In this document: piece by piece, positions 9,652 to 62,411 of the stretch | Position numbering within the stretch: position 1 is the stretch's first letter | How the letters are laid out: every line of letters begins with the position of its first letter | Virus record (IMG/VR): IMGVR_UViG_3300032053_000016 | Span: 43,402 to 107,401 of that record | Reading direction: 5' to 3' (one strand) | DNA: 64,000 nucleotides | Source of the DNA: a virus | Translations under genes and position numbers: made by a program | Notes under the pieces: generated by a model | Databases searched by the model: none | What the model was told of the DNA's origin: nothing | The model's input: only the letters and a program-made list of their open reading frames with translations

Positions 9652-9774
9652 GGTCTTTTCCTTTCAAGTCACATCGTCACGCGTTTTCACACGGATGAGA
9701 CTCGGAGGACCACGTGGCCGATGGTTATAGCGATAGCTGGATGTTCATGATGCCTTAGATAGTAGTCTGTTTAG

Positions 9775-9852
9775 CGCGCCCGACCGGATTCGAACCGGTG
9801 ATATGAAGGTCTATTAGTCTTCATGCTTTAGGCCGGACTAAGCAACGGGCGC
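9775..9852 (-). tRNA. tRNA with an atypical anticodon arm (best reading AAT, Ile?)
   Basis: Acceptor stem GCGCCCG/CGGGCGC, D-stem GCTT/AAGC, T-arm ACCGG-TTCGAAT-CCGGT; anticodon stem TGAAG/CTTCA closes a 10-nt loop ACTAATAGAC; CCA not encoded. Confidence 0.8.
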
Positions 9853-9939: not shown

Positions 9940-10578
9940 TCACTCTGCGAAATACAACGGATTGCTCTTGAGCAAGACACGTAGACGATACATCTCGTTA
10001 CGTGACATGTTGATCCCCAGTTCGCTCAACTCTGTCTCGACCAGTAACCGCAAATCGACAGCTGGATTCGCTGCTCGAACACGGTCGATTTTCTCAGGCT
10101 GCAGCTTGTTGGTCCATGCTGACTTGATCTCTATGTAGCAATTCCAACTCTTCACCCAGAAATCCGGAAAGTACCTGTGAGACTTTCCGTTGTCATCTTG
10201 CCAACGAAGCATACCGACATGTGAAGCAAGTTCAAGTCCATGTTGCAAGGCCCAATTCGCAAACAACACTTCATACAGTCCTTGACAGCGATACGGTCCC
10301 ACTGTGTACCATTTGGACTTGTTTCCTCTTTGTGTGTTCGCGCAGAGTTTGCTGCAGAATTTCCTTGGTTGAGATTGCCAATACGATACAGTAACTCCAC
10401 ATGCCAAACACGATGATTGCTTCGTGTTTTCGACGCGTCGTCGTGCTTTAATGGAGCACGAGACACCGCAATACTGCAATGGGTTCTTGTTATACCTCCA
10501 CGCGAGATATGAGCATCCACAATAGTCACAGTTATGCGGTGTGTCTCGGTATTGCTTGTTTCTAAGTTCTTGACTCAC
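9940..10578 (-). CDS. putative homing endonuclease: Zn-finger repeats plus TnsA-like PD-(D/E)XK domain
   Basis: CDYCG..YCGVSC, CLACG..FCSKLC; HRYFPDFW..YIEIKS. Confidence 0.75.
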   Translation of the reverse strand: MSQELRNKQYRDTPHNCDYCGCSYLAWRYNKNPLQYCGVSCSIKARRRVENTKQSSCLACGVTVSYWQSQPRKFCSKLCANTQRGNKSKWYTVGPYRCQGLYEVLFANWALQHGLELASHVGMLRWQDDNGKSHRYFPDFWVKSWNCYIEIKSAWTNKLQPEKIDRVRAANPAVDLRLLVETELSELGINMSRNEMYRLRVLLKSNPLYFAE

Positions 10579-11531
10579 TTCTTCTTAGATACGGCTCGTC
10601 CTACTAAACGTTCCCAATCACGCTGAGGGCGGACTTCGAGGTTCTTCTCCCAAGCGCCGCGCATGACTTTAGGGTCAACGCCATTTTCCTTGGCGACGCA
10701 CATCAACGCATTGAGGTCCTTGATGAAGCAGCTCCCCGCCCATCCCATTGCTGACTCGCCCGTGTCATCCGCCGGCATCGGCCCAGGGACCTTCCAGTGC
10801 GAAGTTCCCAGGCGCGCGTCTAGAGTCGCGTACTCGATCACCTTGTCGTAGTCGATGTTTGCCCCATTGGCGTCGAGCGCGTTGCAGATCTGGTAGAACT
10901 CGTTCGCCAAAGACACCTTGCATGCGAGGTGGATGTTTGTGACGTATTTAACCATCTCGGCCGTCGTGCTCGACGTTTTGATGATCGGGACGTTGGGAAA
11001 TGCCGTCTCGAAGACTTGTTTCACCCTGTTGATGTGAGGTCGAGGGCCACCGAGAACGATCCGATCCTGATTCCGCATGTCGTTAAGCGCGGACGCTTCG
11101 CGGAGGAACTCCGGACAGAAGACGACTCGAAGCCCGGTGTCCTTGAAGGCCTTGTTCCAGCGTTCGGTCGACCCCGGAGGGACCGTCGACTTCACGACCG
11201 CGACGCGCTCTCCGGGGACGTTCGCGAGCTCCTTCAGCACACCTTCGACGATACTGAGGTCGGCTGAGCCGTCCTCGTACATGGGAGTAGGCACGCACAC
11301 GAAGTAGACGCCCGTGAAGTCCTTAAGAGCGGCGCATGCCGCAACGAAAATCTGAGTGGCAGTAGGCCCCACAAGGCCTGGCATGTCAGCCGCTGCGAAA
11401 CGACCATCGCCGCCTACAGCGACCTTACCGGTCTTGTCGTACACATAGACGTCAAAGCCACGTTCCGACATAACAGTGGTAAGCGAGCCGCCGACAAAAC
11501 CCTGCCCGATGACCGCGATGCTTTTCTTCAC
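10575..11531 (-). CDS. ugd: UDP-glucose/GDP-mannose dehydrogenase family protein (short form)
   Basis: IGQGFVG, VCVPTP, VKSTVPPG, PEFLRE, AEMVKY, GSCFIKD catalytic Cys. Confidence 0.88.
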   Translation of the reverse strand: MKKSIAVIGQGFVGGSLTTVMSERGFDVYVYDKTGKVAVGGDGRFAAADMPGLVGPTATQIFVAACAALKDFTGVYFVCVPTPMYEDGSADLSIVEGVLKELANVPGERVAVVKSTVPPGSTERWNKAFKDTGLRVVFCPEFLREASALNDMRNQDRIVLGGPRPHINRVKQVFETAFPNVPIIKTSSTTAEMVKYVTNIHLACKVSLANEFYQICNALDANGANIDYDKVIEYATLDARLGTSHWKVPGPMPADDTGESAMGWAGSCFIKDLNALMCVAKENGVDPKVMRGAWEKNLEVRPQRDWERLVGRAVSKKK

Positions 11532-11540
11532 ACCGGCAAA

Positions 11541-12395
11541 TTAGTCGAGGTTGGGCAAAATGGTGGATGTCCACCAATGTTCAATCTCGGCATCTTGCTT
11601 GTTGCGTTGTGGCGTGAGATCCTGCATTACTTGGAGAAGATCGTCTACGTGTTGATTTGCCCAAGCCACTGCTTTTGACTTGTTTGTGCTGCCGCTTTGG
11701 ATCGCAACCATCAAAGCCTTGAACAACGGGTGGTAAGCATCTTCACGGAAGAGATCGTCAAACGACCTTTTGGTCTTCACATCGTCGCTGTACGCTCGAT
11801 CGAACCCGTTGAAAGCGGCGTCCACGATCATGTCACGCACGTCATCGTGGCCCCAATTGCCTGGATCTCCAGCTGCAGCGATCGCCTTGTCGCCCGCCGC
11901 AAGCGCGCCCGCGATGTCGAAGCCCACGGGCCCGAGGTAGGCGGCTCTGAGGAAGTCAGGATGCTTCGCTCGCCCTGCCGTGTCAGCTTCAAGCTCGACC
12001 AGATTGGGGTTATCTTTGTTTTGATCGAAGTAGCGTTTGATTACCTGCTGCGCAGCAGGACTGACGCTGTAATCGGCAAATACACTCTTCCAATACTCAA
12101 GGGCAGCAGCTAGCAAAACGATAGAAACAACAGCATTCTCGGCGTACAGACGGTGAAGTCTGTAGTTTGCATCGTATTCACTGACAGCTTGCGCCAAACC
12201 CAACACCTTGGGGATCGGAACACCCTCGTGATTCACGATCTCGGACGTTGAGATCGCGATCAGCGATGTCATCCTGCCGTTCATGTATGACACGATCGCA
12301 ACACGGTCAAGCTGTCTGTTCGCTAGATCCATGACATTTGCTTCCTCAATGAGCTGTCGGTGGATGAGCTCACGCAGTTCGTTGAGGGTCAACAC
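11541..12395 (-). CDS. hypothetical protein
   Basis: 284 aa; N-terminus LNELRELIHRQLIEE. Confidence 0.7.
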   Translation of the reverse strand: MLTLNELRELIHRQLIEEANVMDLANRQLDRVAIVSYMNGRMTSLIAISTSEIVNHEGVPIPKVLGLAQAVSEYDANYRLHRLYAENAVVSIVLLAAALEYWKSVFADYSVSPAAQQVIKRYFDQNKDNPNLVELEADTAGRAKHPDFLRAAYLGPVGFDIAGALAAGDKAIAAAGDPGNWGHDDVRDMIVDAAFNGFDRAYSDDVKTKRSFDDLFREDAYHPLFKALMVAIQSGSTNKSKAVAWANQHVDDLLQVMQDLTPQRNKQDAEIEHWWTSTILPNLD

Positions 12396-12413: not shown

Positions 12414-13112
12414 TCAGATGATGTTCATGTCGAGGACGCTGACGATCGCGATGTGTCGTTCGTCACCCAGATCAAGGCAAATCTCAACGTCGTTGGTCAA
12501 CCTGTTGGTCTCGTAGATCTTGAAACCACCAGCTAACGTGCCGTAATGTTGCAATCCTCCTGGAAAAGAAGGCCTGTACATAACGCAGGCCTCCAGAATG
12601 CACCTCACGTTAGGACCGACGTAGATCTTGTTGGGTGTAACCCCGTGTTGCTTGCGCAGTTCGTTGCTCGCATCGACGATGGTCTCGATGAGCGTCTCGT
12701 ACCATTCGCGAACCGTTCCGGTGAAGACGGGTCCCATTGAGAGACTCGAGGTGAGGTCGATAGGATTACCTGTGAGCTTATTGATGAACTTTCCAGGTGC
12801 GCGAGACCAGAACATCCGAAGTTGGTAGACCTCCTGCGAAGGAGGAGCAATGGATGCGATCTTCCCACAGATCATTCCCTCCATGTAAAAGAGATCAGCC
12901 TTCACATCCTCAGCCAGGAACTTCAACCGCACGGATTCAAGAACTTTTTCAGCGGCTTTCAACGAAGGCATCCTAGTGGCGTACCTGATCTCGTAGCTGT
13001 CTGCGCTTGGCATCTGAGCAGCATAGTCACAGATGTTTTCGAACGTGACGATGACCGCGTTGTCGACAAACTGATCTTCTTTGTCTTGTCTGTATCTGTC
13101 GATGAACTTCAC
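12414..13112 (-). CDS. protein with an isolated T4 gp23-like major-capsid segment in its C-terminal half
   Basis: WSRAPGKF..FTGTVREWYETLIETIVDASNELRKQHG..NKIYVGPNVRCILE..GTLAGGFKIY resembles the gp23-family A-domain region. Confidence 0.7.
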   Translation of the reverse strand: MKFIDRYRQDKEDQFVDNAVIVTFENICDYAAQMPSADSYEIRYATRMPSLKAAEKVLESVRLKFLAEDVKADLFYMEGMICGKIASIAPPSQEVYQLRMFWSRAPGKFINKLTGNPIDLTSSLSMGPVFTGTVREWYETLIETIVDASNELRKQHGVTPNKIYVGPNVRCILEACVMYRPSFPGGLQHYGTLAGGFKIYETNRLTNDVEICLDLGDERHIAIVSVLDMNII

Positions 13113-14098
13113 AAGTACCTTGTTCTTTCTATGGTGCCGCTCAAACTAGCACCGACGAACTCGTCGACAGTCTTCGCGGCATATTCTCCAACGGCCTCAT
13201 GACTCATGAGCGGTCGCAAGGCGGCAGCTCGTTTCCCAAGATCGGTGCGGATCGCTGGATGATCCAACAGATGATCAATGCGTGCTTCGAGCGTCTCGTA
13301 CTCGTAATCAGGCCCAAGTGACGCGTAGTGCTCCCATTCTTTCAGCGGCCAGCAGCAGTTGTTCTGCGGCAAGGCAAGGATGCATTTACCAAGCACTAAG
13401 AACTCGTAGAACTTGCGACTTGATACTCCAATGCCGGGGAAATCGAGACACACCTTCGTGCGATTGATGACGCTGTAGTACTCGTCTGGCGGCATGAGAC
13501 CGTCGTAGGTGACGATGTTGAGATCCTTGCGTCGCTCCTTGATCTCAAGCAGTTTTGCGTAGCCGATGCGACGGTTGGTTGGCCAGTGTTGATTGGTGTT
13601 GCGACTCTTTGGCCAGCAGTACGGCTTGTTGTGATCGTGAACCTTACCGCCAACGAAGAGCACGTCGATGTCCTGTTCGACCTTCGGAAGCGTGTCAGCC
13701 ACCTTGAAGATGCGATCCGGGTCGTTCGTCATGAGGGCAAGCGGGTAGACATCCTCCTTGAACGGGTAGAACACGCGTTGCTCGGACGTGCTCCCATGTT
13801 GAATCTTTAAGACCATGTAGTCTGTGACCTTGTAGTGGTCGATCAGGTTCTGGAAACGCGGCCAGTTGAGCTTGATGTCGAACGGGGTGCCACCCGATCC
13901 GTCGTCGCCGTCGAAGAAGCACAGGAAGTTCTTGCCGTCGCGTTCGTACAAGAAGCACGACCAATTCTTGTTCAACGTGCTGGATGACATGTTCGCGTCC
14001 TGAACCGCTTCAGGAGCGTGCTTCTTGTAGAACTTCGTCAAGAAGTGAACGAAGTGATCGCGATCGTCAATACCGTAACGCGTGATCTTGCCGATCAT
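13109..14098 (-). CDS. glycosyltransferase (GT-B C-terminal domain)
   Basis: DIDVLFVG, YYSVINRTKVCLDFPG..SRKFYEFLVLG. Confidence 0.75.
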   Translation of the reverse strand: MIGKITRYGIDDRDHFVHFLTKFYKKHAPEAVQDANMSSSTLNKNWSCFLYERDGKNFLCFFDGDDGSGGTPFDIKLNWPRFQNLIDHYKVTDYMVLKIQHGSTSEQRVFYPFKEDVYPLALMTNDPDRIFKVADTLPKVEQDIDVLFVGGKVHDHNKPYCWPKSRNTNQHWPTNRRIGYAKLLEIKERRKDLNIVTYDGLMPPDEYYSVINRTKVCLDFPGIGVSSRKFYEFLVLGKCILALPQNNCCWPLKEWEHYASLGPDYEYETLEARIDHLLDHPAIRTDLGKRAAALRPLMSHEAVGEYAAKTVDEFVGASLSGTIERTRYL

Positions 14099-14823
14099 GT
14101 TTCCCTCGTGTAGATCAGCTCTTTGCTGTGGTGGTGGTTGTCCGACTTGCGTCGACTGGTGACAGTTGTCCTAAACGGTTCGAAGGGAAGCCAGTCGGGG
14201 ATTGTGCCTGTCTTGGGACATTCGGCCTCACACACGATGACCTGCCCTCGCAGATCAGCGATTTGACCCGTCAAACGTGTGTAATCTAACGTTTTCGCAC
14301 GGTACTGGTAGTTGTACTGATACGGAGGGTCGACGAACCATGTGCCTTCAACACCAGGTTTCAGAAGCTCGAGGCCATCGACTCGAACCTTCCAGTGCTT
14401 GATGAGGTGGAACTCGCTCGCGACACGACTTCTCGTGTTCTCGGTCCACTGCCCTGACTTGTTTCCCCACGACGAGACCGTCCAGCAGCTGCCGACGTTG
14501 TTCGTTCTCTGCCACGTCTTCATGAGCAGTTCTTGACCACGGTTCATGCCGAGCTCACGCACATCCGTCCCCTCAGGGATGTTGATAGGCATCTCACGGA
14601 TGCTCGCCTCGGTGGCTTCCTCGATGAGCCACCACCACAGCGCGCACACATGCTCGTCAGACTCAGCGAGCAACACGTCTTTGCGATGGTGTCGCAACGA
14701 GTAACCAGCACTGCCCGCGAACGGCTCGATGATCATGTCATGCGTCGGCGCGGGGTAATGCTTTGCTGCTGTCCATTTCGAGCCGAACCACTTGAAGAGT
14801 GGACCTGTGATCGTGTCACTCAT
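14095..14823 (-). CDS. N6-adenine DNA methyltransferase (D12/Dam-like)
   Basis: FKWFGSK, EPFAGSA, FVDPPY. Confidence 0.85.
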   Translation of the reverse strand: MSDTITGPLFKWFGSKWTAAKHYPAPTHDMIIEPFAGSAGYSLRHHRKDVLLAESDEHVCALWWWLIEEATEASIREMPINIPEGTDVRELGMNRGQELLMKTWQRTNNVGSCWTVSSWGNKSGQWTENTRSRVASEFHLIKHWKVRVDGLELLKPGVEGTWFVDPPYQYNYQYRAKTLDYTRLTGQIADLRGQVIVCEAECPKTGTIPDWLPFEPFRTTVTSRRKSDNHHHSKELIYTRET

Positions 14824-15485
14824 GTTTTCTTCTTTCGAATCATGCTCGTCATGCTGTTGTCAGACGTGTAATCGTACGAATGTTCTTTCGGCAACCGCAC
14901 CCAGATCGTCACGTGTTTGACGTCTTGACGAAGCGTCTCGAACACGTGACGGCTCACGTACTTGCTGTGGAAATCCTTCTCGTACTTCAGTGACTCGATC
15001 ATTCTGAAGGTTGTGTGAACGAGCTTTTCGTTGTGGGCGTCAGCGGAGCAACTTTCAAGCTTTGGCAGGAAGCTCGTGTGGATGTCCTCAACAACGTAGA
15101 ACCCATCCGGCTTCACATGACTCCACAGTTTAGAAAAAGTCGACTGTTGATGCTTCATCATGTGACTACCGTCGTCAACGATAAGGTCCCATGGGCCATG
15201 CTTTTCAGAGAGTTTCACTAGCTCGTTCGTGTCGTTCGCGTCGATCTTGTGAAGTGTAACACCGTCGATGTCCCCGCAACGCTTGATGTCCAGATCGACG
15301 CCATGGATCTCCGCATTTGGAAAGTACTCACGCCACATGCGTAGACTTGCGCCAAAGAACACGCCGATCTCCAAAACCTTCAATGGCTCAGATCTGCGGT
15401 CCTCTAGTCTACGCTCGTAAACTTCGCAGTACCCGTGGTTCGCCTTGTCAGTTCCATGCTTGACAGCAATGTCGTGTAGGTTCAC
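14820..15485 (-). CDS. class I SAM methyltransferase (sugar O-methyltransferase-like)
   Basis: GTDK..HGY, LEIGV, IVDDGSH, YVVEDIHTS. Confidence 0.85.
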   Translation of the reverse strand: MNLHDIAVKHGTDKANHGYCEVYERRLEDRRSEPLKVLEIGVFFGASLRMWREYFPNAEIHGVDLDIKRCGDIDGVTLHKIDANDTNELVKLSEKHGPWDLIVDDGSHMMKHQQSTFSKLWSHVKPDGFYVVEDIHTSFLPKLESCSADAHNEKLVHTTFRMIESLKYEKDFHSKYVSRHVFETLRQDVKHVTIWVRLPKEHSYDYTSDNSMTSMIRKKKT

Positions 15486-16288
15486 TTTCTCTCCAAAATG
15501 ATGAAGTTTTGATCGTACTTCCCACTCGAGAACCTCCCGCGCTCCAACGCGTTGAACCCCTGCATCTTGTCGATGACGTCGGCGACAACAGGCTGACGGA
15601 TGTGACCGAGTGGGTCGTCAGGTTGAGGCACGCCACCGTGTGGGAGCGCTTTCACAGGGAAGGTGATCAGCACACGCGCGTCTAGACGCGTGATGTCGTG
15701 AAGGTCAGCGATGATGTTGTCTTCGGCAGTCTGATCGACATGCTCCAACACCTCGGTCAACGTCACCACGTCAAACGTTGTGTCGTACGTGTCGCGAAGA
15801 CGATCGAAGCGAACGTCAAAGTGCTTCACATCCACACCAAGCAACGTCAACAGCTTGTTGTAACAGGGTGAGAAGTCGCACGTGTGAAGGTTGAGATCGT
15901 ACCTGTAGTGATCGCGGTAGAGCAAGGCTCCGTGACACCCATGCGCTGGAGCGATGTCAAGCAGCCTTCCTGTATGTGCTGCGTTTGGAAAGAAGCGAGC
16001 GTTAGCGAACTCCGGTCGTGGAAACGTCCTCCCGTTCCTCCACGTTGGGTCGACGAACTCACGTTGAGCCCACACCTTCAACGTGTCGCGTTCGTCTGTA
16101 GAGAGCGCGAAGTACACACTCAAGAAATCGTCGAACTGCGCCTTGATCCTCGCACCCGTCTCAGCGTCCATCGTGGCGAACGCAACGAGTTCATCGTGAG
16201 AGTAAGGGCTCATGGCATCACCGCCCCAGTCGATGCGGCCATTCGCGAGCTCGGAAGCGCCGAGACGCTTGAGAATGTCGTCGTTCAT
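15482..16288 (-). CDS. class I SAM methyltransferase
   Basis: LLDIAPAHG, FDVVTLTEVLEHV, LITFP. Confidence 0.8.
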   Translation of the reverse strand: MNDDILKRLGASELANGRIDWGGDAMSPYSHDELVAFATMDAETGARIKAQFDDFLSVYFALSTDERDTLKVWAQREFVDPTWRNGRTFPRPEFANARFFPNAAHTGRLLDIAPAHGCHGALLYRDHYRYDLNLHTCDFSPCYNKLLTLLGVDVKHFDVRFDRLRDTYDTTFDVVTLTEVLEHVDQTAEDNIIADLHDITRLDARVLITFPVKALPHGGVPQPDDPLGHIRQPVVADVIDKMQGFNALERGRFSSGKYDQNFIILERK

Positions 16289-17196
16289 CAGAGGTCCTTG
16301 AACATCTTACGGTAGGGTTCCATTCCACCCTTAGAAATCTTAAAGCGTTCCACATCTGGGATGGTTGGAATTGCTTGTGAAACGTCGTCGGCGATCGCAG
16401 AATGATGAAGAACTTGTTCGGCAATGCCGACGGGTGTTGAAACGACAGGAAGACCAATCGCTCCTGCTTCAAGAAAAGCCTGAGGTCCACCTTCGTGCAC
16501 GCTTGTGACAGCGTACAGATCGGCACATTGGTAGAATTCGTTCAAGACTGGTTGTTCTGGTCGTTCGCGATACACATACGGGGTACCTGCAGCAGCGAGG
16601 CGGCCGCAAATATATTGCCTTCTCCATCCTGCCAAAAGCACCAGTGAGTTTGGATCTTGTTGATGTCTCTTGATGAAGAAATCGGCTAAAGCCTCAGGAC
16701 CCTTTTCACGTTTTGGAGACTTTTCGTCGTGTCCTTCTGTATCGCGCTGAGCCGAGAAAACGATATTCGCGTTCAAAGGCAAATCATGCTTCGCTCTCAA
16801 CACTTGAGAATCAGCTGTGCGTCGCCACATAGCATCATTCACCCAATACGGAACCTGTCTTACGGGTTTGTCTGTCAGGATTTCCAGTTGAGCTTTTGCG
16901 CGCGCGTTGTACACGTGATACAAATCGACGTGCTTGTCGCGGTCCATAAATTCTTCTCGCTCGTCAACGCCAAACTTGGAAGGGACGAGGTGGTGGATCG
17001 TGACGACGACCTTTTTGTTCGGCTTGTCTTTCAAAAGATGTTTTGGAATGACTCTCCATCTCCACTCTGAGAAAATCCAAATGATGTCAGCTTGCTCAGG
17101 TCGCATCACCGATGACTTCGGGTTGTGTTTCAACCAATCGTTTGTCAAGGTGTCACAGATCCAGTTTTCATCAGCCGGCAACATATAGATCTTCAT
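16288..17196 (-). CDS. glycosyltransferase, GT-B/GT4
   Basis: ADLYAVTSVHEGGPQAFLEA..PVVSTPVG. Confidence 0.85.
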   Translation of the reverse strand: MKIYMLPADENWICDTLTNDWLKHNPKSSVMRPEQADIIWIFSEWRWRVIPKHLLKDKPNKKVVVTIHHLVPSKFGVDEREEFMDRDKHVDLYHVYNARAKAQLEILTDKPVRQVPYWVNDAMWRRTADSQVLRAKHDLPLNANIVFSAQRDTEGHDEKSPKREKGPEALADFFIKRHQQDPNSLVLLAGWRRQYICGRLAAAGTPYVYRERPEQPVLNEFYQCADLYAVTSVHEGGPQAFLEAGAIGLPVVSTPVGIAEQVLHHSAIADDVSQAIPTIPDVERFKISKGGMEPYRKMFKDL

Positions 17197-17840
17197 TGAG
17201 CGAACCTCCATTTGAGATTTTGGTGGTGAGGTCGTGTCCCTCGACAGACCGCGCCTATGTGACCTTCGCAGTAGTCGTTCGTACGAGCAGCAACCCTAAT
17301 CGAGGAGTACGCGGCAACGAACACGTCGTCCATCGTGTAACAATCAACGCGACGACACCGTTTGCTGATCTTGCCGTATTGGGGATTGTTCGGACCAAGT
17401 TTCGAATCTCGAAGCTTCACACGCGTCTCGATCGAGATCGGAACCTTTGCTCGACGACCGACTTTCGCGCGCTCGTTTGGATCTTGGTATCGACGTCGCT
17501 GACTCAGACTCAGTTTTCTTCGAGTCTCGACAGTAGGAAGTCCACTTTCCCCACCTTTTGAACCGTTGTATCCGAAATCAGGATCGGCACTTCGACAACG
17601 TTTGATCCAACGTTGTTCAAACGCTTTTGCTTCGCTAAGCGAATCCGTTTCTTCTAGCTGTTGATGTTTCCATGCGTCAACACCGTACTTGTTGATTGCT
17701 CGATGGAAATGGTATTGGCTTCCGGAACGAGCGATCGACACATGTTTGCGCCAACGTTTTTCCATGCCTTTCGACGTCCATCCAATGTAGGATTTTCCGT
17801 TTACAAGACATGTGTGACAGTAAACAACAAACCCTTTCAT
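17193..17840 (-). CDS. GIY-YIG homing endonuclease with NUMOD motifs
   Basis: VVY..NGKSYIG, RW.KH, GYN, ETRRKLS, GPNNPQYG, YSSIRVAAR. Confidence 0.85.
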   Translation of the reverse strand: MKGFVVYCHTCLVNGKSYIGWTSKGMEKRWRKHVSIARSGSQYHFHRAINKYGVDAWKHQQLEETDSLSEAKAFEQRWIKRCRSADPDFGYNGSKGGESGLPTVETRRKLSLSQRRRYQDPNERAKVGRRAKVPISIETRVKLRDSKLGPNNPQYGKISKRCRRVDCYTMDDVFVAAYSSIRVAARTNDYCEGHIGAVCRGTRPHHQNLKWRFAQ

Positions 17841-39050: not shown

Positions 39051-40256
39051 GTGAAGTTGAGCAAAGCTTCGATCGTTGAGGGGGTGACGGCCGCGAAAGC
39101 CTACACGGGTGGAGGCGTCACGATCGTTGGCAGAGACTCTCTGTCAAGAGTGGCTGTCGTTGGGCCAATGGGCCTACTGCTGAACACGCGAGCGCCTGAC
39201 GACCTAGATGACGGCGCAGTGCACCCGTTCCTGATGGCGTTAGAGCACGCTCGCGTTAGCGAGACGCAAGGCCCTGGATCGCTACGTGCGAGCGTCGTCT
39301 ACGCTGACAGGCTTCTTCGAGGAGCCTCGCCAGCGTCACGTGAGCTGACTGGTCGCACGTTCACTCGCGCCGACGTCGCGCGCGTGGCTGGAGGCATCCT
39401 CGACGCCGACGATGTTGAGGCGATGACGGTGTTTGTTCAAGACGCAGGCGCTAGTCGGTACATTGTTGAGCGACAGCCGGCGAGAGCAGACAGCGTCGAG
39501 TTCGTTGACAGCTACGAGTTCAAACACACATCGAAATCCATCGATGGCACGGTGTGCATGGACGGCGCTCGAGTGTTGGTCGCAGACGGCTACATCGAGA
39601 CAGTTGCCGAGATCCACGGCGTGCTTGACCGCTGCGCGAAGGAGGGTGAGAGACTGCTTATCTGCGGTCGTGGATTCTCGGATGATGTGATGCACACGTT
39701 GGCCGTGAACCGTTCACGTGGGACATTGGTGGCGTACGCGTTGACCTTCCCGTTCGACGATACGGATGCGAACACGCTGGTTGACGTGGCAACGATCGTG
39801 GGAGGAGACGTTGTTTCCTCTCTCAAGGGCCAGTTGTACTCAGCTGTCGATGTGACCGCGTTGCCGCGCGTTCCATACGCGCGTTTGCGCGGGCAGACGT
39901 TAGATTTCCGTGGCGAAGGCACGGCTGAACGTGCGGCAGCAGTGCTCCTTGGCGTTCAGAGCAAACTCGCTGAGTCCGAAGACCCAGTGCGTTCCATCCT
40001 TGAACGTCGCGTGAGACGCCTCTCAGGGGCATGCATGATCGTGCGCTTGGAAGATGGAGTCAACCACCTCTCACGTGTGGAGGCTTGGGATCTCGCGCTC
40101 AGAAGCCTGCGAGCCGCGACACATGGCGTCGTGGACGCGACTGACAACGAAGCTTGGCCTGGACGCGACGTGGTGCCGTTGAGCTCGGTGGCCATGGCCC
40201 ACGAGACGGCACGCAAGCTCGTTCGAGCGTTAGAGTCGCTGGATTCTTATGTCTGA
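39051..40256 (+). CDS. divergent GroEL/chaperonin-like protein
   Basis: Apical-domain signature VLVADGYI..LLICGRGFSDDVMHTLAVNR..LVDVATIVGGDVVS; ERRVRRLSG. Confidence 0.75.
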   Translation: MKLSKASIVEGVTAAKAYTGGGVTIVGRDSLSRVAVVGPMGLLLNTRAPDDLDDGAVHPFLMALEHARVSETQGPGSLRASVVYADRLLRGASPASRELTGRTFTRADVARVAGGILDADDVEAMTVFVQDAGASRYIVERQPARADSVEFVDSYEFKHTSKSIDGTVCMDGARVLVADGYIETVAEIHGVLDRCAKEGERLLICGRGFSDDVMHTLAVNRSRGTLVAYALTFPFDDTDANTLVDVATIVGGDVVSSLKGQLYSAVDVTALPRVPYARLRGQTLDFRGEGTAERAAAVLLGVQSKLAESEDPVRSILERRVRRLSGACMIVRLEDGVNHLSRVEAWDLALRSLRAATHGVVDATDNEAWPGRDVVPLSSVAMAHETARKLVRALESLDSYV

Positions 40257-55351: not shown

Positions 55352-55695
55352 GTTCTTGACATGCGTAAGACCAAACTGCAGCAACTGCGGATGTCGAAAT
55401 GCGAGAACAAGCTGTTCTCCTGCAGCGTTCATAAAATCGCCGAGAAGGCTGACGAACTCAACGAGCTGTTCAAGGATGGATGGCTCACTGAGGAGACGCA
55501 GGTCGTCGGCGACACGTATCTTGTGCTCTTGAAGAAGGAGCATTCCGGACGCAAGGTGTTCTACGTCGACGTGGGCAACATGGCGCCGGAGGAGGTCACA
55601 GCGTACATGGATCGTGTGAAGGAGCTGACGTCTAACCCGGACAAGGATAGCGACTTCTACATTCCAGGCAGGTGATCGCGTAGGTTCTTGACATG
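55348..55695 (+). repeat. 16-bp direct repeat GTAGGTTCTTGACATG at 55348-55363 and 55680-55695
   Basis: Exact match; each copy ends on the ATG of consecutive genes. Confidence 0.85.
55361..55675 (+). CDS. small protein ending in a T4 gp20-like portal clip fragment
   Basis: RKVFYVDVGNMAPEEVTAYMDRVK..DFYIPGR matches the portal motif RRVFYxDxGNxP...DYxxPxR. Confidence 0.7.
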   Translation: MRKTKLQQLRMSKCENKLFSCSVHKIAEKADELNELFKDGWLTEETQVVGDTYLVLLKKEHSGRKVFYVDVGNMAPEEVTAYMDRVKELTSNPDKDSDFYIPGR

Positions 55696-55974
55696 ACGGA
55701 CGCTATGACCATGCTGCTCAACCTGATCACCCTCGCTGAATCCGACCCGACAGCGATCAAGCTTGAGGTGAGCCGTACGTACTACGATCCAGAGGACTTC
55801 ACGCCACGTAAGACGGTGAGGGTTGACGGCTCTCAGGTGTGCGTCGTGGAGCTTGCAGACGTGATGGAGGCGTCGAAGGACTGGCCCGCTCTGCGACACG
55901 AGACGCTAGAGAAGTACATGCCAACGTTGAAGCCGGGGATGATCCCGGTGGGGGAGCCGGTCGAGGACTCGTGA
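55693..55974 (+). CDS. hypothetical protein
   Basis: 93 aa ORF. Confidence 0.55.
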   Translation: MTDAMTMLLNLITLAESDPTAIKLEVSRTYYDPEDFTPRKTVRVDGSQVCVVELADVMEASKDWPALRHETLEKYMPTLKPGMIPVGEPVEDS

Positions 55975-56999: not shown

Positions 57000-57773
57000 G
57001 TGGCGCTGATCTACCGGATCGACAGTAAGGAGACCGGCTTGACGTACGTCGGGCAGACTGTCTTGCCGCTTGACGAGCGGTGGAAGGCTCACGTCGCGTA
57101 CGCTTGGTGGGTCATTCGTCACATGCCGGAGAAGGACACCCACTTCGCGAGGGTGATCAGAAAGCACGGCGCGAAGACGTTCGTGCCGAGCGTTATCGAG
57201 GAGACGGCGGTCGAGTTGCTGAACGAGCGTGAGATCCACTGGGTCGCAGAGCTTGGGACCTTTGAGAACGGATACAACTCGACGAGGGGTGGCGGCGGCC
57301 GAAGCGGGTACGAGTGCTCCGAGGTGACGAGGGAGAAGTTGCGTCAGGTCCAGTTGGGTAGGAAACACACTGACGAGACGAAGGCGAAGATCTCGGCGAA
57401 GAAAAGCGGCGTGAAACAAGATCCAGCGATTGTTGAGAAACGAGCTTTCGCAAATCGAGCCGCCGGGCATAAGCGTTCTGATGAGGTCAAGCAAAAGATT
57501 CGTGCGTCGAACGTTGGACAGACGCGAACGCTTGAAATGAGAGCTAAGATGGCAGCATCGGCCAAGGGGAGAGTCCTGTCAGAATCGACAAAGAAGAAAC
57601 TCGGTAAGCGCGTTAGACAACTGACGAAGGAAGGCGTCCACGTTCAGACGTTTGATACGCTCACTGAAGCAGGCCAAGCGACAGGCTATTCGAAGGGCGC
57701 CGTATGTAACAACATCCGCGACCCGAAGCGTTTCCCGCTGAAGGACGTCATCTTCGAGCACGTGACTACGTAA
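57000..57773 (+). CDS. GIY-YIG homing endonuclease with NUMOD3/NUMOD1 motifs
   Basis: LIY..YVGQT..RW..H; LNERE; GYNSTRGG; HTDETKAKIS; FDTLTEAG. Confidence 0.88.
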   Translation: MALIYRIDSKETGLTYVGQTVLPLDERWKAHVAYAWWVIRHMPEKDTHFARVIRKHGAKTFVPSVIEETAVELLNEREIHWVAELGTFENGYNSTRGGGGRSGYECSEVTREKLRQVQLGRKHTDETKAKISAKKSGVKQDPAIVEKRAFANRAAGHKRSDEVKQKIRASNVGQTRTLEMRAKMAASAKGRVLSESTKKKLGKRVRQLTKEGVHVQTFDTLTEAGQATGYSKGAVCNNIRDPKRFPLKDVIFEHVTT

Positions 57774-59039: not shown

Positions 59040-61409
59040 GTGTCCATCAAACGTCTACCTCCTGAAGCGATCGAGACATTCTCGATACTTCTACACCCAA
59101 AGAGAGCGTACGTCTCATCGTCTTTAGGGGTAACAGGATCGCTCAAAATCTTCTCGAACCCATCGGCTCGCGAGAAAGACATCTTCTTGCCGTCGGCGTT
59201 CGTTGACACAGCACGTTCGTCGAACACGCTGGAGTCCACCCTTCGAGCATTGCAGGTGAAGGTCGCTGGCGGAACGTCAAATGTTTCAGAAGCGATGCAG
59301 TCGTACCTTGATCAGGTAAATTCCACGCCTACATCCGCCAAGAACACGATGGACTTGGAGATCCTACGCCACGCTCCAACGACACTGTACACGATCAACA
59401 CCGCCAAGAAACTGTTCGTGCAAGATAGTCTGATGCCGTACTACCGTGTGCATAGGCCGAGCAACAACTGGGCGTACGTCAACTACCACAGCGTCAACTT
59501 CTTCACGAGCGACACAGTCCCAAGCGACGCGGCTTGGCTCTACCCGAATGTGCGTGACGCTGAGTACCCGAGTGGTTGCTACTCGCCGACTGGCAGCTTC
59601 ACCTTCGAACTCCACGTCAACCCACGTTACACGGCTGACGTGACCAGCTCGTACAACGCAGGAACGATCATCCACCTGTCGTCGAGCTACGTGCTTTCGT
59701 TGGTGTCTGGATCTTCTCGTGGCCGCGACGGCAACCCTGACGCCTTCCGTCTGCTTCTGCAGCTGTCAGGGAGCGCCGACGTTCAACCGAGTCAGGTCAC
59801 ACCCGGCGTCGGTAACGGTGTGTACGCTTACCTGTCCGATGACAACAGCTTGCGTCTCAACAACTGGCACCATGTGCTTGTGACGTGGGGCACGAGCAGG
59901 AACGATCAAGGCACAGGTAGTTTCTACGTCGACGGCGTCCAGAAGGGCGTGTTCGTCTTCCCTGGCAACACGATCCTCCCGCCTGTTGCGACAAACGACG
60001 TGCTTTGCCTCGGCAACTTCTACGAGGGGTCGAACACAGGACCCAGCATCCAGGCCAGGTTCTTCACGACAGACACCGCCGCACGTGAAGGTGTGCATGA
60101 GCTAGACGGCACGTCGGGGGTGAACTACCCTACCTCGTTCAAGTTCAGACACCAGTTGAACGCGGAGCTGCATGACGTCAGCATCCGTGACGAGTACCTG
60201 CCGTCGACTAAGGCCAAAGTGCACGGCTCGGTGACCGTGAAGAAGGCGCCACCCACGGCGGACAACTACCTGTTCTACGTTCCTCCGTTCTTCGTCCCGG
60301 GTTCACCGACGTTGACAGAAGTTGACGGATCTGGCGGACTGCTCATCTCTCCTTTCCACGCGCTGGATGAGAGCAGCAAGCATCCGTTCTCGGCCCCGAT
60401 GTCCTTTGGCGTCGCCGGTCGGTACAACAGTCTTGAAAACTTCACACGGGACTTCGCGACGAACCGTCACGCGCGTGTTCTCCACTTGACAGCGAGCCAG
60501 TTCCTTGACACCACGCCAGGTGCGTTGACATGCAACGATTACCTCTACGCAACAGCCAGCGTGAGGTTGCGTAACCTCAACGTGCTCCCATGCGACGATG
60601 GTAACTTCTGTCCGAACTTCGAGATGGCATCCGTGTTGGATCTCGTCGACGAACCACGTTTCGTTGATGACATTGGCTCGCCAGATCCTGCGCTCATCTC
60701 GTTACGCAAGATGATCTCTGGCTCGATCTACTCGAGCTTGTTTCACCAGACCGGCTCGTTGTTCTCAGATGTCGTGAGACTGCTGCCGGAGTCTGGATCG
60801 CTGTCGCCCACCGTTGTGCCTTCAGGGCTGTACGCTGTGTACCAACGCACGCAGGACGCGTCCTCGAACGAGGTTGTGTTCTTCGACATCAGCAACCTGT
60901 TCTTCGGCGAACGCATCCGTCCGGGTTCGTTCATCATCACAGATCCTGCCATGTCGGGATCCAACGGTCGCGTCTCCATTCGTCTTCAAGACGATGGCAA
61001 CGGTGGGCTCTTTCGTGCTGACAGCGTCACGCAACGCGCCATGTGGAACCACGTCGGCAACGTCTTCTACGAGGAAGGCGTTGTGACTATCAAGTCACCC
61101 GCGTTACCGTTCTTCGGCGCCGAAGGGTTCGAGATCGAGTTCGAGGGTGAGAAGGCAGTGCACACGACAAAGATCAGCGTGCTTGTTGATGCGACATCGT
61201 ACAACACGTCGTCGAACCCGTCGTGGAGCCCGACGATGTCAGCGTCCTTCGACGCGAATCGTGACCCTGAGAATCAGAAGTTCGTCACGATCAGCGGTGT
61301 CAACTTCCACGACGAGAATCTGAACATCGTGATGAGAACGCAGTTGGCGCAGCCTTTGGTCAAGCGTCGCGGAGATCGTTTTTTGATAAGAGTGAAGTTC
61401 GACTATTAG
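59040..61409 (+). CDS. LamG/ConA-domain virion protein
   Basis: SFTFELHV, NNWHHVLVTW, FYVDG; C-terminus paralogous to 57786..59024. Confidence 0.7.
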   Translation: MSIKRLPPEAIETFSILLHPKRAYVSSSLGVTGSLKIFSNPSAREKDIFLPSAFVDTARSSNTLESTLRALQVKVAGGTSNVSEAMQSYLDQVNSTPTSAKNTMDLEILRHAPTTLYTINTAKKLFVQDSLMPYYRVHRPSNNWAYVNYHSVNFFTSDTVPSDAAWLYPNVRDAEYPSGCYSPTGSFTFELHVNPRYTADVTSSYNAGTIIHLSSSYVLSLVSGSSRGRDGNPDAFRLLLQLSGSADVQPSQVTPGVGNGVYAYLSDDNSLRLNNWHHVLVTWGTSRNDQGTGSFYVDGVQKGVFVFPGNTILPPVATNDVLCLGNFYEGSNTGPSIQARFFTTDTAAREGVHELDGTSGVNYPTSFKFRHQLNAELHDVSIRDEYLPSTKAKVHGSVTVKKAPPTADNYLFYVPPFFVPGSPTLTEVDGSGGLLISPFHALDESSKHPFSAPMSFGVAGRYNSLENFTRDFATNRHARVLHLTASQFLDTTPGALTCNDYLYATASVRLRNLNVLPCDDGNFCPNFEMASVLDLVDEPRFVDDIGSPDPALISLRKMISGSIYSSLFHQTGSLFSDVVRLLPESGSLSPTVVPSGLYAVYQRTQDASSNEVVFFDISNLFFGERIRPGSFIITDPAMSGSNGRVSIRLQDDGNGGLFRADSVTQRAMWNHVGNVFYEEGVVTIKSPALPFFGAEGFEIEFEGEKAVHTTKISVLVDATSYNTSSNPSWSPTMSASFDANRDPENQKFVTISGVNFHDENLNIVMRTQLAQPLVKRRGDRFLIRVKFDY

Positions 61410-61436: not shown

Positions 61437-62411
61437 ATGATCAAAGAAATCAAGATTCTTCCTCGTATTGCTAAAGGCGCACCTGGCCTTCCTCCTCGAC
61501 AGCTCATCCTCGAATGCGATCATTGTCACTCGACATTTGAACGTCTTTACGCGACCGATCGCGCGAAGCAAACCAAACACTTCTGCTCTTCAACTTGCGT
61601 CTACGCTGGCCGTGCTGCTAGTCCGCTTCACGGTCGGAAGACGACCCGATCTTGCTCGCAATGCGGGAAAGAGATCACACGAGCAACTTCACACATGGAG
61701 AATCAAGACATCCTTTGTGATCGTGAATGCTTCAAGTTGTGGAAGGTGGCAACCACTCCGCCTGAACAAGTAGCTGCGATGTCAACCCCTGAAGCTCGCG
61801 CGAAGTCGAAGGCTACCCTCATCAAGCAACGTTCGGCACCAGGGTACGTCCACTCGATGCTTGGTCACGTCCATGGAGACGAATCACGAGCGAAGATGCG
61901 CGAATCAGCCGTTGGCAAGCACGACGGAGCTCTCAACGGGATGAAGGGGCGAAAGCATCGCGAGGATTCGAAGGAGAAGATGTCCGACGGTCACTCGCAG
62001 AACCTTGTCGATGGCAAAGGGTTTGTCTACGGTGGCAATGGACACATGAGTGGGTGGCACACGTCATTCAAGGGCAACAACGGCGAGAGGATGTTCTACC
62101 GCTCGTCGTGGGAGAGGGACATGATGCTCCACCTGGACTCGAACGACGACGTCCCTTCGTACGGGTACGAGTGCGTGCGCATTCCGTACTACGACATTGA
62201 CAACCACAAACGCAACTACGTCCCTGACTTCCTCGTCACGCACGCGAGCGGCCGCCGCGTCCTCGTCGAGATCAAGCCGAAGCAGTTCCTCAACAACGAG
62301 AAGACGAAGCTCAAAGCTGAGGCAGCTCGCGCCTACTGCTCCGCTAACGGCATAGACGTCTACGAGATCCTCACAGGAGAAGACCTACGATCAAGACAGA
62401 TCGTCAAGTGA
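61437..62411 (+). CDS. putative homing endonuclease: Zn fingers, NUMOD3 and a gp4/TnsA-like nuclease
   Basis: CDHC..FCSSTC, CSQC..CDREC; HREDSKEKMS; YRSSWE..IPY..YVPDF..VEIKP. Confidence 0.75.
   Translation: MIKEIKILPRIAKGAPGLPPRQLILECDHCHSTFERLYATDRAKQTKHFCSSTCVYAGRAASPLHGRKTTRSCSQCGKEITRATSHMENQDILCDRECFKLWKVATTPPEQVAAMSTPEARAKSKATLIKQRSAPGYVHSMLGHVHGDESRAKMRESAVGKHDGALNGMKGRKHREDSKEKMSDGHSQNLVDGKGFVYGGNGHMSGWHTSFKGNNGERMFYRSSWERDMMLHLDSNDDVPSYGYECVRIPYYDIDNHKRNYVPDFLVTHASGRRVLVEIKPKQFLNNEKTKLKAEAARAYCSANGIDVYEILTGEDLRSRQIVK

Follow-up and report, generated by a model that had tools for sequence, protein, structure and literature searches.

A gene in the 64,000-nt window (the whole stretch of DNA analysed here, which belongs to a large T4-like phage that is uncultured) is predicted, from its sequence and structure model, to encode an autonomously folding copy of a single domain of a major capsid protein (MCP), namely the A (axial) domain of the gp23 type, joined to an orphan N-terminal domain. 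This is a real gene under selection, not debris, and its 232-residue product probably works by imitating the head protein.

A free-standing A-domain of a gp23-type capsid protein

The reading frame runs from 12414 to 13112 on the minus strand, exactly where the earlier note had placed it, and encodes 232 amino acids and a stop from a GTG start; the sequence AAGG lies 5 nt upstream of it. In the four nucleotides GTGA (13109..13112, minus strand), as read directly in the sequence, this start shares letters with the stop of an upstream glycosyltransferase-like gene, which suggests that the two genes are translationally coupled. The AF2 model of the protein (pLDDT 93.9, pTM 0.83) divides into an orphan N-terminal domain (residues 1–92; 12837..13112, minus strand) and the A-domain (residues 93–232; 12417..12836, minus strand). 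The database entry P0001 is identical to the protein, and full-length relatives (P0002–P0007 and P0009) share 33–54% identity with it by phmmer. P0001 is also encoded on a 259,843-bp contig. PHROGs held no family for the protein, searches of PDB sequences by phmmer and with the family profile returned chance matches alone (YmzC, calpain), and its ESM Atlas scores of 0.81–0.82 are below the useful range.

The resemblance of the protein to capsid proteins is far above chance. A phmmer search of 5.8 billion proteins identified dozens of capsid proteins bearing PF07068, the gp23-type Pfam family of HK97 fold, at E-values of 1e-20 to 1e-24 and with 48–52% identity across residues ~100–201. A capsid HMM made from 40 environmental gp23-type MCPs matched the protein with 120 bits (E 6e-36), and the same set of MCPs matches T4 gp23 at E 5.6e-28. 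The PF07068 model itself gave E 0.045 and 13.6 bits, not reaching its cut-off of 24.4, and this match spans profile positions 217–296 of 376 only. Residues 91–232 of the AF2 model superpose on residues 313–521 of T4 gp23 (PDB 5vf3, 6uzc and 7vrt) with Z 11.4–11.7 and an rmsd of 2.7 Å over 109–117 residues, and the alignments cover this part only, in line with the claim that the remaining HK97 fold is absent. T4 gp24 (PDB 1yue) matches model residues 90–231 with Z 9.8, and in Foldseek searches of BFVD the best matches of the A-domain are gp23-type MCPs (E 4e-7). The closest MCPs are environmental T4-like proteins of ~600–680 aa (stop-to-stop frame). One match, in the 484-kb GenBank phage LR756508, proved to be that phage's own 555-aa-frame capsid gene and not a fragment gene. 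These results agree with the gp23-family resemblance proposed earlier for residues ~101–232; the extent of the domain had to be corrected, as the homology reaches the very C-terminus with an internal deletion of ~41 residues after residue 221. The protein and gp23-type MCPs thus have common ancestry, the same fold (Z 11.7), near-identity at residues 101–150 and the same C-terminal heptapeptide, V-L-D-M-N-I-I (residues 226–232; 12417..12437, minus strand). In contrast to an MCP, the protein consists of one MCP domain only, with an excised P-domain excursion and an added orphan N-domain; it evolves many times faster, occurs sporadically, and is encoded in a sugar operon instead of a head module.

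Loss of the lattice-joining elements and the orphan N-domain

The N-arm, the E-loop/I-domain, the spine helix and the P-domain are all absent from the 232-residue protein. Alignment against MCPs places the junction of the missing ~41-residue P-domain excursion between residues 221 and 222 (12447..12452, minus strand), and the MCP blocks GYVYAPYVP, LIVTPTIFAP and EDFTPRKGVMTRYGKKMVRSDF, which lie beyond query position 221, are missing in each of the 38 fragments. Since every lattice-joining element is gone, the protein cannot build or complete a shell. Structure alignments, the deleted P-domain block and an N-domain unlike capsid elements all show that the HK97 fold is incomplete. Like the protein, T4 gp24 is a gp23/MCP paralog kept for a job other than forming hexamers; however, gp24-type vertex proteins are full-length paralogs with a complete HK97 fold that form the pentameric vertices, whereas the protein has the A-domain alone and no lattice position is possible for it.

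The N-domain comprises a helix (residues 3–32), a strand (39–45), a second helix (51–67) and a hairpin (70–87). This alpha/beta domain has pLDDT 82.5 when folded alone. Its best Foldseek match in the PDB has E 0.06, and the best hit of a wide VIA-align search (Z 6.9 at an rmsd of 6.6) is at background level. An exhaustive phmmer search of 1.84 billion representatives found the domain in P0001, P0002 and P0004 only, and a search of viral contigs with the domain alone returned no relatives. By these comparisons residues 1 to ~92 resemble nothing known, as had been suspected. We considered whether the N-terminal 30-residue helix could be a relocated spine helix, which would make the protein a miniature complete HK97 fold. 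This was rejected, as the capsid alignments begin only at residue ~90 and no capsid element is matched by the N-domain on its own.

Mosaic conservation of the A-domain

The conservation of the A-domain is strongly uneven. The invariant core of the family (residues 101–150; 12663..12812, minus strand) covers a strand, a long loop and the first two-thirds of helix a5, and carries the signature WSRxPGKF.NK.TG ... GP.FTGTVREWYETL.ET..D..N. Within it, the identity is 0.64 between fragments, 0.71 between fragments and MCPs, and 0.77 between MCPs, and about 28 positions reach an identity of 0.85 or more with the MCP consensus. Over residues 151–226, the corresponding values are 0.28, 0.30 and 0.84. 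Of the A-domain positions that are invariant in MCPs, the 232-residue protein has lost about half, and its C-terminal residues L227, D228, M229, N230, I231 and I232 match the MCP consensus in 0.58–0.89 of fragments. The median dS of residues 101–150 against 181 MCP genes is 1.5. Because synonymous sites have diverged to this degree, the conservation of the segment reflects selection on the protein, and gene conversion was ruled out as its source.

The conserved polar residues R135, E136, E139, T140, E143, T144, D147 and N150 line one face of helix a5, opposite its hydrophobic face, and this polar stripe is kept also in short forms of the family without the N-domain. The two main A-domain helices are the major subunit interfaces of a facet (PMC8346489); in T4, the core of the capsomer is made up of A-domains, and the gp24-bypass mutations that fall in a short helix are located at the intracapsomer interface (PMC9546572). 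This gp24-bypass helix aligns with query residues 167–174. From the pattern of conserved residues, we infer that the conserved a5 face is a putative interaction surface. Residues 101–150 could, alternatively, simply be the best-packed part of the fold.

The gene lies among sugar-modifying genes

The gene lies outside any head-morphogenesis module. As the earlier note described, its surroundings are accessory and not a head operon. The neighbours are glycosyltransferase, methyltransferase and sugar-dehydrogenase genes. The upstream neighbour (329 aa; 13109..14098, minus strand) is glycosyltransferase-like, with a PF13524 match (E 5.6e-4, 20.3 bits) below the 25-bit cut-off, and a PF13524-like gene takes the same position in L002, one of the other two long-form loci. 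The rest of the upstream co-directional run (14095..17211, minus strand) holds a D12-like methyltransferase gene, two SAM methyltransferase-like genes and a group-1 glycosyltransferase gene, which overlap or abut at their ends; a promoter and terminator scan inside the co-directional run gave no sites above chance. On the other side lie an ORF of 284 aa (11541..12395, minus strand), which has no Pfam or PHROG match, and a gene of the UDP-glucose/GDP-mannose dehydrogenase family (318 aa; 10575..11531, minus strand; PF03721, 6.5e-28; PF00984, 1.4e-17). The dehydrogenase matches the N-terminal and central Pfam domains only, with no match to the C-terminal domain. The 284-aa ORF occurs in the source phage only, with no counterpart in L001 or L002. 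Several homing-endonuclease-like ORFs also lie near the gene, and homing-endonuclease activity is abundant in the genome. Elsewhere in the window, a 93-aa ORF (55693..55974) constitutes a capsid-piece mini-gene.

All three long-form loci have a truncated UDP-glucose-dehydrogenase-like gene beside the fragment gene, inside sugar operons. The dehydrogenase of the window is 69% and 65% identical to the genes that directly follow the long-form homologs of L001 and L002, respectively, while the fragments of these loci share 33–35%. The dehydrogenase neighbour is absent at short-form loci. A very divergent short form in G001, a related genome, adjoins two GT4 genes, one of which matches the Pfam entry 'GT4-conflict', together with genes for a PfkB kinase, a DegT aminotransferase, a GDP-mannose dehydratase and an epimerase. 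Two other short forms are found near head genes, 2–7 kb from the MCP gene. Independent support for the sugar link is thin: the context is known for about four lineages, and two of these show it. The strongest contextual clue, which the earlier note had missed, is nevertheless this conserved association with genes for sugar-nucleotide enzymes and glycosyltransferases. The island enzymes could modify DNA or the host envelope instead of the capsid, and the co-location may just reflect two accessory genes in plastic regions.

An old and fast-evolving family under purifying selection

The fragment family is rare, old and fast-evolving, with ~40 divergent members that have intact reading frames. Its N-terminal additions vary, and the short forms have no N-domain. 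In the tree, the fragments form a distinct paralog clade, separated from the MCPs by one branch (SH-aLRT 99), with end branches of 0.3–4.9 in fragments versus 0.01–0.2 in MCPs. Repeated recent duplication from each phage's own MCP was rejected, since the fragments are one clade and do not group with the MCP of their own genome. For the one measurable ortholog pair (L244/L246), the dN/dS is 0.093, compared with 0.015–0.03 for core structural neighbours and 0.07–0.18 for accessory neighbours. Judged from this single pair, the family is under purifying selection and not decaying; the comparison of homologs that had been proposed as a check thus revealed no neutral decay.

The phage that carries the window is related to large phages of known gene content. 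The 789-aa ORF of the window has full-length homologs in G001 and G005 with 41–42% identity, so the source phage is their kin. G001 (318 kb, 93% complete) encodes one gp23-type MCP (L026, 8672..10570) and two fragment genes (L158, 9549..10055; L157, 9349..9837), and it alone carries the fragment gene among five large related genomes. Absence from the other four indicates that the gene is dispensable for head assembly. The MCP of the source phage was not found in the 107-kb record, including by an MCP HMM search, and its match to the fragment is therefore judged from relatives. In a metagenome scan with P0011, a single true relative turned up, on a contig of 1.8 kb, and the other matches were MCPs; scanning with the two short forms of G001 yielded identical copies and one 85% ortholog only; and a back-translated pattern of the EGEIEVLDMNII tail, found in the main short-form cluster, had 0 matches in viral contigs.

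The fast evolution of the family and the homing-endonuclease-like ORFs nearby would suit a remnant without function, left behind when part of a capsid gene was duplicated, for example through a homing endonuclease. We give this explanation practically no credence, and a pseudogene is effectively refuted: the frames stay intact across the divergent members, the domain-precise deletion is common to all fragments, the AF2 confidence is 93.9, the dN/dS is 0.09, the protein-level conservation persists despite saturated synonymous sites, and the N-terminus is conserved and translationally coupled.

Possible functions

We tentatively favour, as possible rather than probable, a mimic that does not assemble, that binds the MCP of its own phage and that may be linked to glycosylation. 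The fragment would imitate, on one side only, the part of the MCP that forms capsomers, and its most likely partner would be the MCP of the same phage, either during head assembly or before it. It may bind an MCP subunit in the manner of a neighbouring subunit and leave no face to which further subunits could add. For the long form, the N-domain and the operon position suggest that a capsid-docking module could be coupled to the glycan enzymes of the island, for instance as an adaptor or escort in the glycosylation of the capsid, or as an add-on that itself bears a glycan. Unless regulated, however, such a cap could harm the phage whose MCP it binds. The earlier note had also proposed a non-assembling mimic, one that titrates capsid sensors, poisons competitor capsids or modulates head assembly. 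The autonomous A-domain, the loss of the lattice elements and the purifying selection speak for such a mimic, and the earlier proposal as a whole is supported in part. On the points that could have overturned that proposal, the gp23 link proved significant, decay was not seen and the capsid or vertex fold is incomplete.

The target could instead be a host receptor, which we regard as somewhat unlikely. The free A-domain would then show the surface that host receptors read on monomeric MCP, and would occupy the receptors but lack the contacts through P-domain and E-loop that activation requires, thereby blunting capsid-triggered abortive infection. Sporadic presence, with two copies in the only carrier among the five large genomes, is a usual mark of conflict genes; the long end branches, the variable N-terminal additions, the accessory-island locations (one with the 'GT4-conflict' match) and an MCP-like surface kept while the rest diverges are consistent with this as well. 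However, an A-domain that keeps the recognised surface could equally trigger the sensor, the one measurable pair shows purifying and not diversifying selection, and the repeated placement beside sugar enzymes is left unexplained. The earlier note had named Lit and CapRel as relevant sensors, but both fit poorly, and a Lit/Gol or CapRel decoy specifically was rejected: the Gol peptide of T4 lies near gp23 residues 93–122, outside the A-domain. Both systems detect the MCP through short motifs (preprint 10.64898/2026.01.04.697583). Avs7/8/10 are reported to bind the capsomer-forming interface of the A-domain, a domain of which the family retains part. That single-domain A-domain copies are competitive antagonists of such receptors for the capsomer-forming face of monomeric MCP, perhaps including further capsid-piece mini-genes, is an unlikely idea; if true, they would represent the first decoys derived from a virion protein, and the 93-aa ORF may join the set. 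A counter-defence review of November 2026 lists no phage-encoded capsid mimic or decoy, and thus offers no precedent (PMC13728456). If the decoy reading holds, DSAD1, which acts against DSR2, is a functional analogue in that it competes with a virion protein for an immune sensor (PMC11087589); DSAD1 is no copy of the sensed protein, whereas the fragment is an MCP A-domain copy for which sensor binding is only proposed. The same one-sided conservation would fit a chain terminator directed against co-infecting relatives, a dominant-negative cap that poisons the capsomers of competitors sharing the conserved MCP. The MCPs of the clade are very uniform (0.77–0.84 identity), and one mimic could hit many competitors, but the carrier's own equally conserved MCP (shown for G001) would be poisoned too, with no immunity mechanism evident. 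We know of no precedent for capsid poisoning by phages proper, the known cases being satellites that remodel helper capsids, and we consider such a weapon very unlikely. Among satellites, the PLE protein TcaP reportedly remodels the helper capsid and Ccm of SaPIbov5 is said to be an MCP homolog. Such hijackers are likewise accessory and act on the helper's HK97-fold MCP via capsid-like or capsid-binding surfaces; they differ in being satellite-encoded, redirecting capsid size and being complete or scaffold-like, whereas the fragment is phage-encoded and a single domain.

Two further explanations start from the sugar operon. The protein may be a structural partner of an enzyme in the style of the Family 4 A-domain encapsulins, stabilising or organising the dehydrogenase or glycosyltransferase, perhaps as an oligomer. 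Family 4 proteins (PF08967/DUF1884; Andreas & Giessen 2021, PMC8346489) are stand-alone HK97 A-domains of ~100 residues encoded beside an enzyme gene, and the GAPDH of Pyrococcus furiosus forms a stable complex with its A-domain partner. The protein shares this free-standing fold, matching PF0899 of P. furiosus (2pk8) with Z 8.2 and an rmsd of 2.8 Å over 85 residues (model 133–228), and the adjacency of an NAD-dependent dehydrogenase without its usual C-terminal domain at the three long-form loci points in the same direction. Nevertheless, the explanation appears quite improbable. A dehydrogenase conserved at 65–69% beside a fragment at 33–35% is not what one would expect of an obligate partner, there are short forms with no dehydrogenase neighbour, and the 284-aa ORF separates both genes in the window; moreover, the conservation of an MCP-specific surface, beyond the mere fold, is left unexplained. 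There is also no sequence relation to PF08967, which gave no match to the protein at E up to 1, and the family profile misses 2pk8 at E up to 10. Family 4 is cellular, found in thermophilic Euryarchaeota and Bacteroidetes, whereas the fragment family arose separately from a phage gp23-type MCP, keeps MCP-specific surface residues, has variable N-terminal additions and shows an enzyme link that is not universal. Alternatively, the protein could be a minor virion or decoration protein, whose A-domain docks on assembled capsomers and whose N-domain is displayed on the head, possibly glycosylated. Decoration proteins are likewise dispensable, sporadic and fast-evolving, and both the sugar-operon context and the family members near head genes would agree with such a role. 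On the other hand, we know of no decoration protein derived from an HK97 A-domain, and the short forms would have nothing to display. The conserved segment also corresponds to the inside of the capsomer core in T4 and not to the outer surface (PMC9546572). Virion glycosylation by phage-encoded glycosyltransferases is known in mycobacteriophages, according to work cited in PMC11256854, but on balance a decoration role is distinctly improbable.

Implications for HK97-fold proteins and large phages

Capsid proteins of the HK97 fold are known for building shells, and reports of free-standing A-domains come only from a few thermophilic cells. The fragment family shows that phages themselves have produced a one-domain version of their head protein, retained it and let it diversify. 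The retained stretch contains one of the two A-domain helices reported as subunit interfaces, and the elements for assembly have been discarded; the preservation of the one together with the loss of the others suggests that the protein acts by imitation. The MCP could be the target, for assembly control or for the delivery of a modification such as glycosylation, or host sensors could be, and either target would represent a new principle. The repeated placement in glycan islands provides a lead on the purpose of the sugar-enzyme clusters that are widespread in large phages.

Sequence and fold of the excised A-domain

The 232-aa ORF at 12414..13112 (-) begins with a GTG start codon that overlaps the stop codon of the upstream gene (GTGA), with AAGG five bases upstream, and its N-terminus (MKFIDRYRQ...) is kept in relatives. 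The gp23-like resemblance proposed in the earlier note is real despite a weak Pfam score. The Pfam Gp23 model matched this query below threshold (E 0.045; 13.6 bits against a cut-off of 24.4 bits), whereas dozens of PF07068-bearing capsid proteins, among 5.8 billion proteins searched, matched it at E 1e-20 to 1e-24 and are 48-52% identical to it across residues ~100-201. Furthermore, the query scored 120 bits against a custom capsid HMM built from 40 environmental gp23-type major capsid proteins (MCPs), and one of the environmental MCPs matched T4 gp23 at E 5.6e-28. By direct reading, the match starts at FWSRAPGKF and continues to the very end of the protein, VLDMNII, a sequence in which MCPs end as well.

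The AlphaFold2 model of the query (pLDDT 93.9, pTM 0.83) was computed from an alignment of 33 family members. Its residues 91-232 superpose on the axial domain of T4 gp23 (residues 313-521) with Z 11.4-11.7 and an rmsd of 2.7 Å over 109-117 residues. Weaker structural matches were obtained with gp24 (Z 9.8) and with PF0899 (2pk8), an A-domain protein that occurs on its own (Z 8.2); further HK97-fold capsids as well as encapsulins score Z 7-10. Foldseek agrees with the assignment. In an alignment of 38 fragments (members of the non-capsid family) and 94 MCPs, an MCP block of ~41 residues (...GYVYAPYVPLIVTPTIFAPEDFTPRKGVMTRYGKKMVRSDF...) following query position 221 is absent from all 38 fragments; we take it to be the excursion of the MCP back into the P-domain. 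Since this block is missing and none of the structural alignments extends upstream of query residue ~90, the query is a cleanly excised A-domain rather than a truncated capsid protein. Residues 1-92 form a helix, a strand, a helix and a hairpin, which fold confidently alone (pLDDT 82.5). A structural search with this N-domain gave no match above background, and phmmer, run exhaustively over 1.84 billion representatives, found no occurrence outside the fragment family.

An old paralog family with mosaic conservation

About 33 clusters of non-capsid relatives were found in the database, comprising query-like long forms (232-241 aa), short forms without the N-domain (132-167 aa) and a few with other extensions; further members were recovered in the fetched loci. 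The FTGTVREWYE motif alone is not diagnostic, as the family profile gave a chance-level match in the PDB to the Calpain-1 catalytic subunit (E 0.45) that rests on a shared FTGGVTEWYE-like string. Fragment genes are rare: of five large genomes searched in full, one has them, and among about 200 MCP neighbourhoods they occur in two. In a tree of the shared core, built by a quick method and with many long fragment branches, a single branch (SH-aLRT 99) separates MCPs from fragments, and fragments fall apart from the MCP encoded in the same genome. The end branches measure 0.3-4.9 substitutions per site for fragments versus 0.01-0.2 for MCPs. The fragments make up a paralog family that is old and evolves fast.

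One MCP-like segment has been retained across the family. Across residues 101-150, identity is 0.64 between fragments, 0.71 between fragments and MCPs, and 0.77 between MCPs; across residues 151-226 the corresponding values are 0.28, 0.30 and 0.84. The MCP consensus is kept in at least ~0.6-0.85 of fragments at about 28 positions in 101-150 and in the last six residues; elsewhere the fragments have lost many of the residues that are invariant in MCPs. Helix a5 has one face made up of conserved polar residues (R135, E136, E139, T140, E143, T144, D147 and N150), opposite a conserved hydrophobic face, indicating that a surface, and not the core alone, is conserved. This polar surface is equally conserved in the short forms. 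The synonymous sites of the segment have diverged from those of every one of the 181 MCP genes sampled (median dS 1.5, minimum 0.73), which rules out recent gene conversion as its source and shows that selection on the protein maintains its similarity to MCPs. The main contacts between subunits of a facet are reported to be made by the two principal helices of the A-domain (PMC8346489). In T4, A-domains form the capsomer core, and interface-modulating gp24-bypass mutations lie in a short helix (PMC9546572) that aligns to query residues 167-174.

The sole close ortholog pair with available DNA, two short forms outside the lineage of the query, is 85% identical with a dN/dS of 0.093, compared with 0.07-0.18 for accessory neighbours and 0.015-0.03 for core structural genes. 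The lineage of the query itself appears to be under constraint, judging from its conservation pattern and intact frames. In conclusion, the query gene is under selection and encodes a capsid A-domain that is autonomous and unable to assemble.

Recurrence among sugar genes

The query sits in a tight co-directional run in the window. It is preceded, in order, by a group-1 glycosyltransferase, two SAM-methyltransferase-like genes, a D12-like methyltransferase and a glycosyltransferase-like gene, and followed by a 284-aa unknown, a UDP-glucose/GDP-mannose dehydrogenase-family gene (10575..11531, -) with N-terminal and central Pfam domains only, and an endonuclease-like gene. Two other loci, L001 and L002, contain long-form homologs with just 33-35% identity to the query. 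In both, a dehydrogenase-family gene (L001 2712..3629; L002 10700..11680) directly follows the long form and is 65-69% identical to that of the window; in all three loci the dehydrogenase-family gene next to the long form (305-326 aa) has the N-terminal and central Pfam domains alone, and the C-terminal domain usual in such enzymes found no match. The long form is preceded by a UDP-galactopyranose mutase in L001 and by a glycosyltransferase-like gene in L002, where a DegT aminotransferase and a formyltransferase also occur.

Besides its MCP, the 318-kb T4-like genome G001 (93% complete) encodes two short, very divergent A-domain proteins, at about 209.3-209.8 kb (L157 9349..9837) and about 145.0-145.6 kb (L158 9549..10055) of G001:C1. 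One, independently of the long-form loci, lies inside a glycan island with two GT4 genes (one matching Pfam GT4-conflict), a PfkB kinase, a DegT aminotransferase, a GDP-mannose dehydratase and an epimerase. Its companion is 7 kb away from the MCP gene, with a head-tail adaptor-like gene close by; a short form in another locus, L131, lies 2 kb from an MCP gene. The recurrence of the fragment family among sugar genes is firm.

Homing-endonuclease-like ORFs (HNH/TnsA-like, GIY-YIG+NUMOD3, TnsA-like+NUMOD3) occur at 9940..10578 (-), 57000..57773 (+) and 61437..62411 (+) and at L001 18..863, and one abuts the sugar operon both in the window and in L001. Just downstream of the operon in the window, ARAGORN called a tRNA-like gene (9774..9852, -) with an unassignable four-base anticodon (aata).

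The phage and a second candidate capsid piece

The 64-kb window forms the end of a 107-kb IMG/VR record whose completeness was judged to be 29%, and carries genes for RtcB, an RNA ligase, a sigma factor, DNA methyltransferases and PhoH as well as a GroEL-like gene. No capsid gene was found in the 107-kb record. The window has a 789-aa ORF (59040..61409, +) with a ConA-like lectin domain (PF13385, 1.4e-8); its full-length homologs (41-42% identity) in the genomes G001 and G005, which have gp23-type MCPs, lie about 17-19 kb away from the MCP gene. On this sequence evidence the phage is kin to these large T4-like phages and probably has an MCP of the gp23 type too. A 401-aa ORF (39051..40256, +) matches a GroEL-like chaperonin family of phages (phrog_5725) at E 1.5e-15, over residues 167-332 only. 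Folding of T4 gp23 requires GroEL, and this ORF may have a bearing on how the capsid protein of the phage folds.

A scan of the record with the MCP HMM revealed a conserved 93-aa ORF (55693..55974, +) with the motif SRTYYDPEDFTPRK. Between its residues 22-42 (IKLEVSRTYYDPEDFTPRKTV) and the gp23-type MCP segment VPLIVTPTIFQPEDFTPRKGV, 12 of 21 positions are identical (pairwise E 4e-5; MCP-HMM E 0.016). The MCP stretch in question is the P-domain segment that the A-domain gene has lost. Two conserved homologs (88-94 aa, 62-71% identity) keep the motif invariant. With this ORF, the phage may have a second mini-gene that encodes a piece of the capsid protein.

Possible functions of the fragment

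A dead remnant is effectively excluded. Action as an immune decoy, rather unlikely overall, gains plausibility from the reported binding of Avs7/8/10 to the capsomer-forming interface of the A-domain; phage-encoded capsid mimics or decoys are absent from a review of counter-defence (PMC13728456), so that a decoy would be without precedent, and it would leave the sugar context unexplained. A partner for an enzyme, in the manner of Family 4 encapsulins, to which the fold match PF0899 belongs, is less likely still, a decoration protein is less likely again, and a poison acting between phages is the least probable of these. We tentatively favour a mechanism in which the fragment, as a one-sided mimic, would bind the MCP of its own phage and, in the long form, would be coupled to the glycan enzymes.
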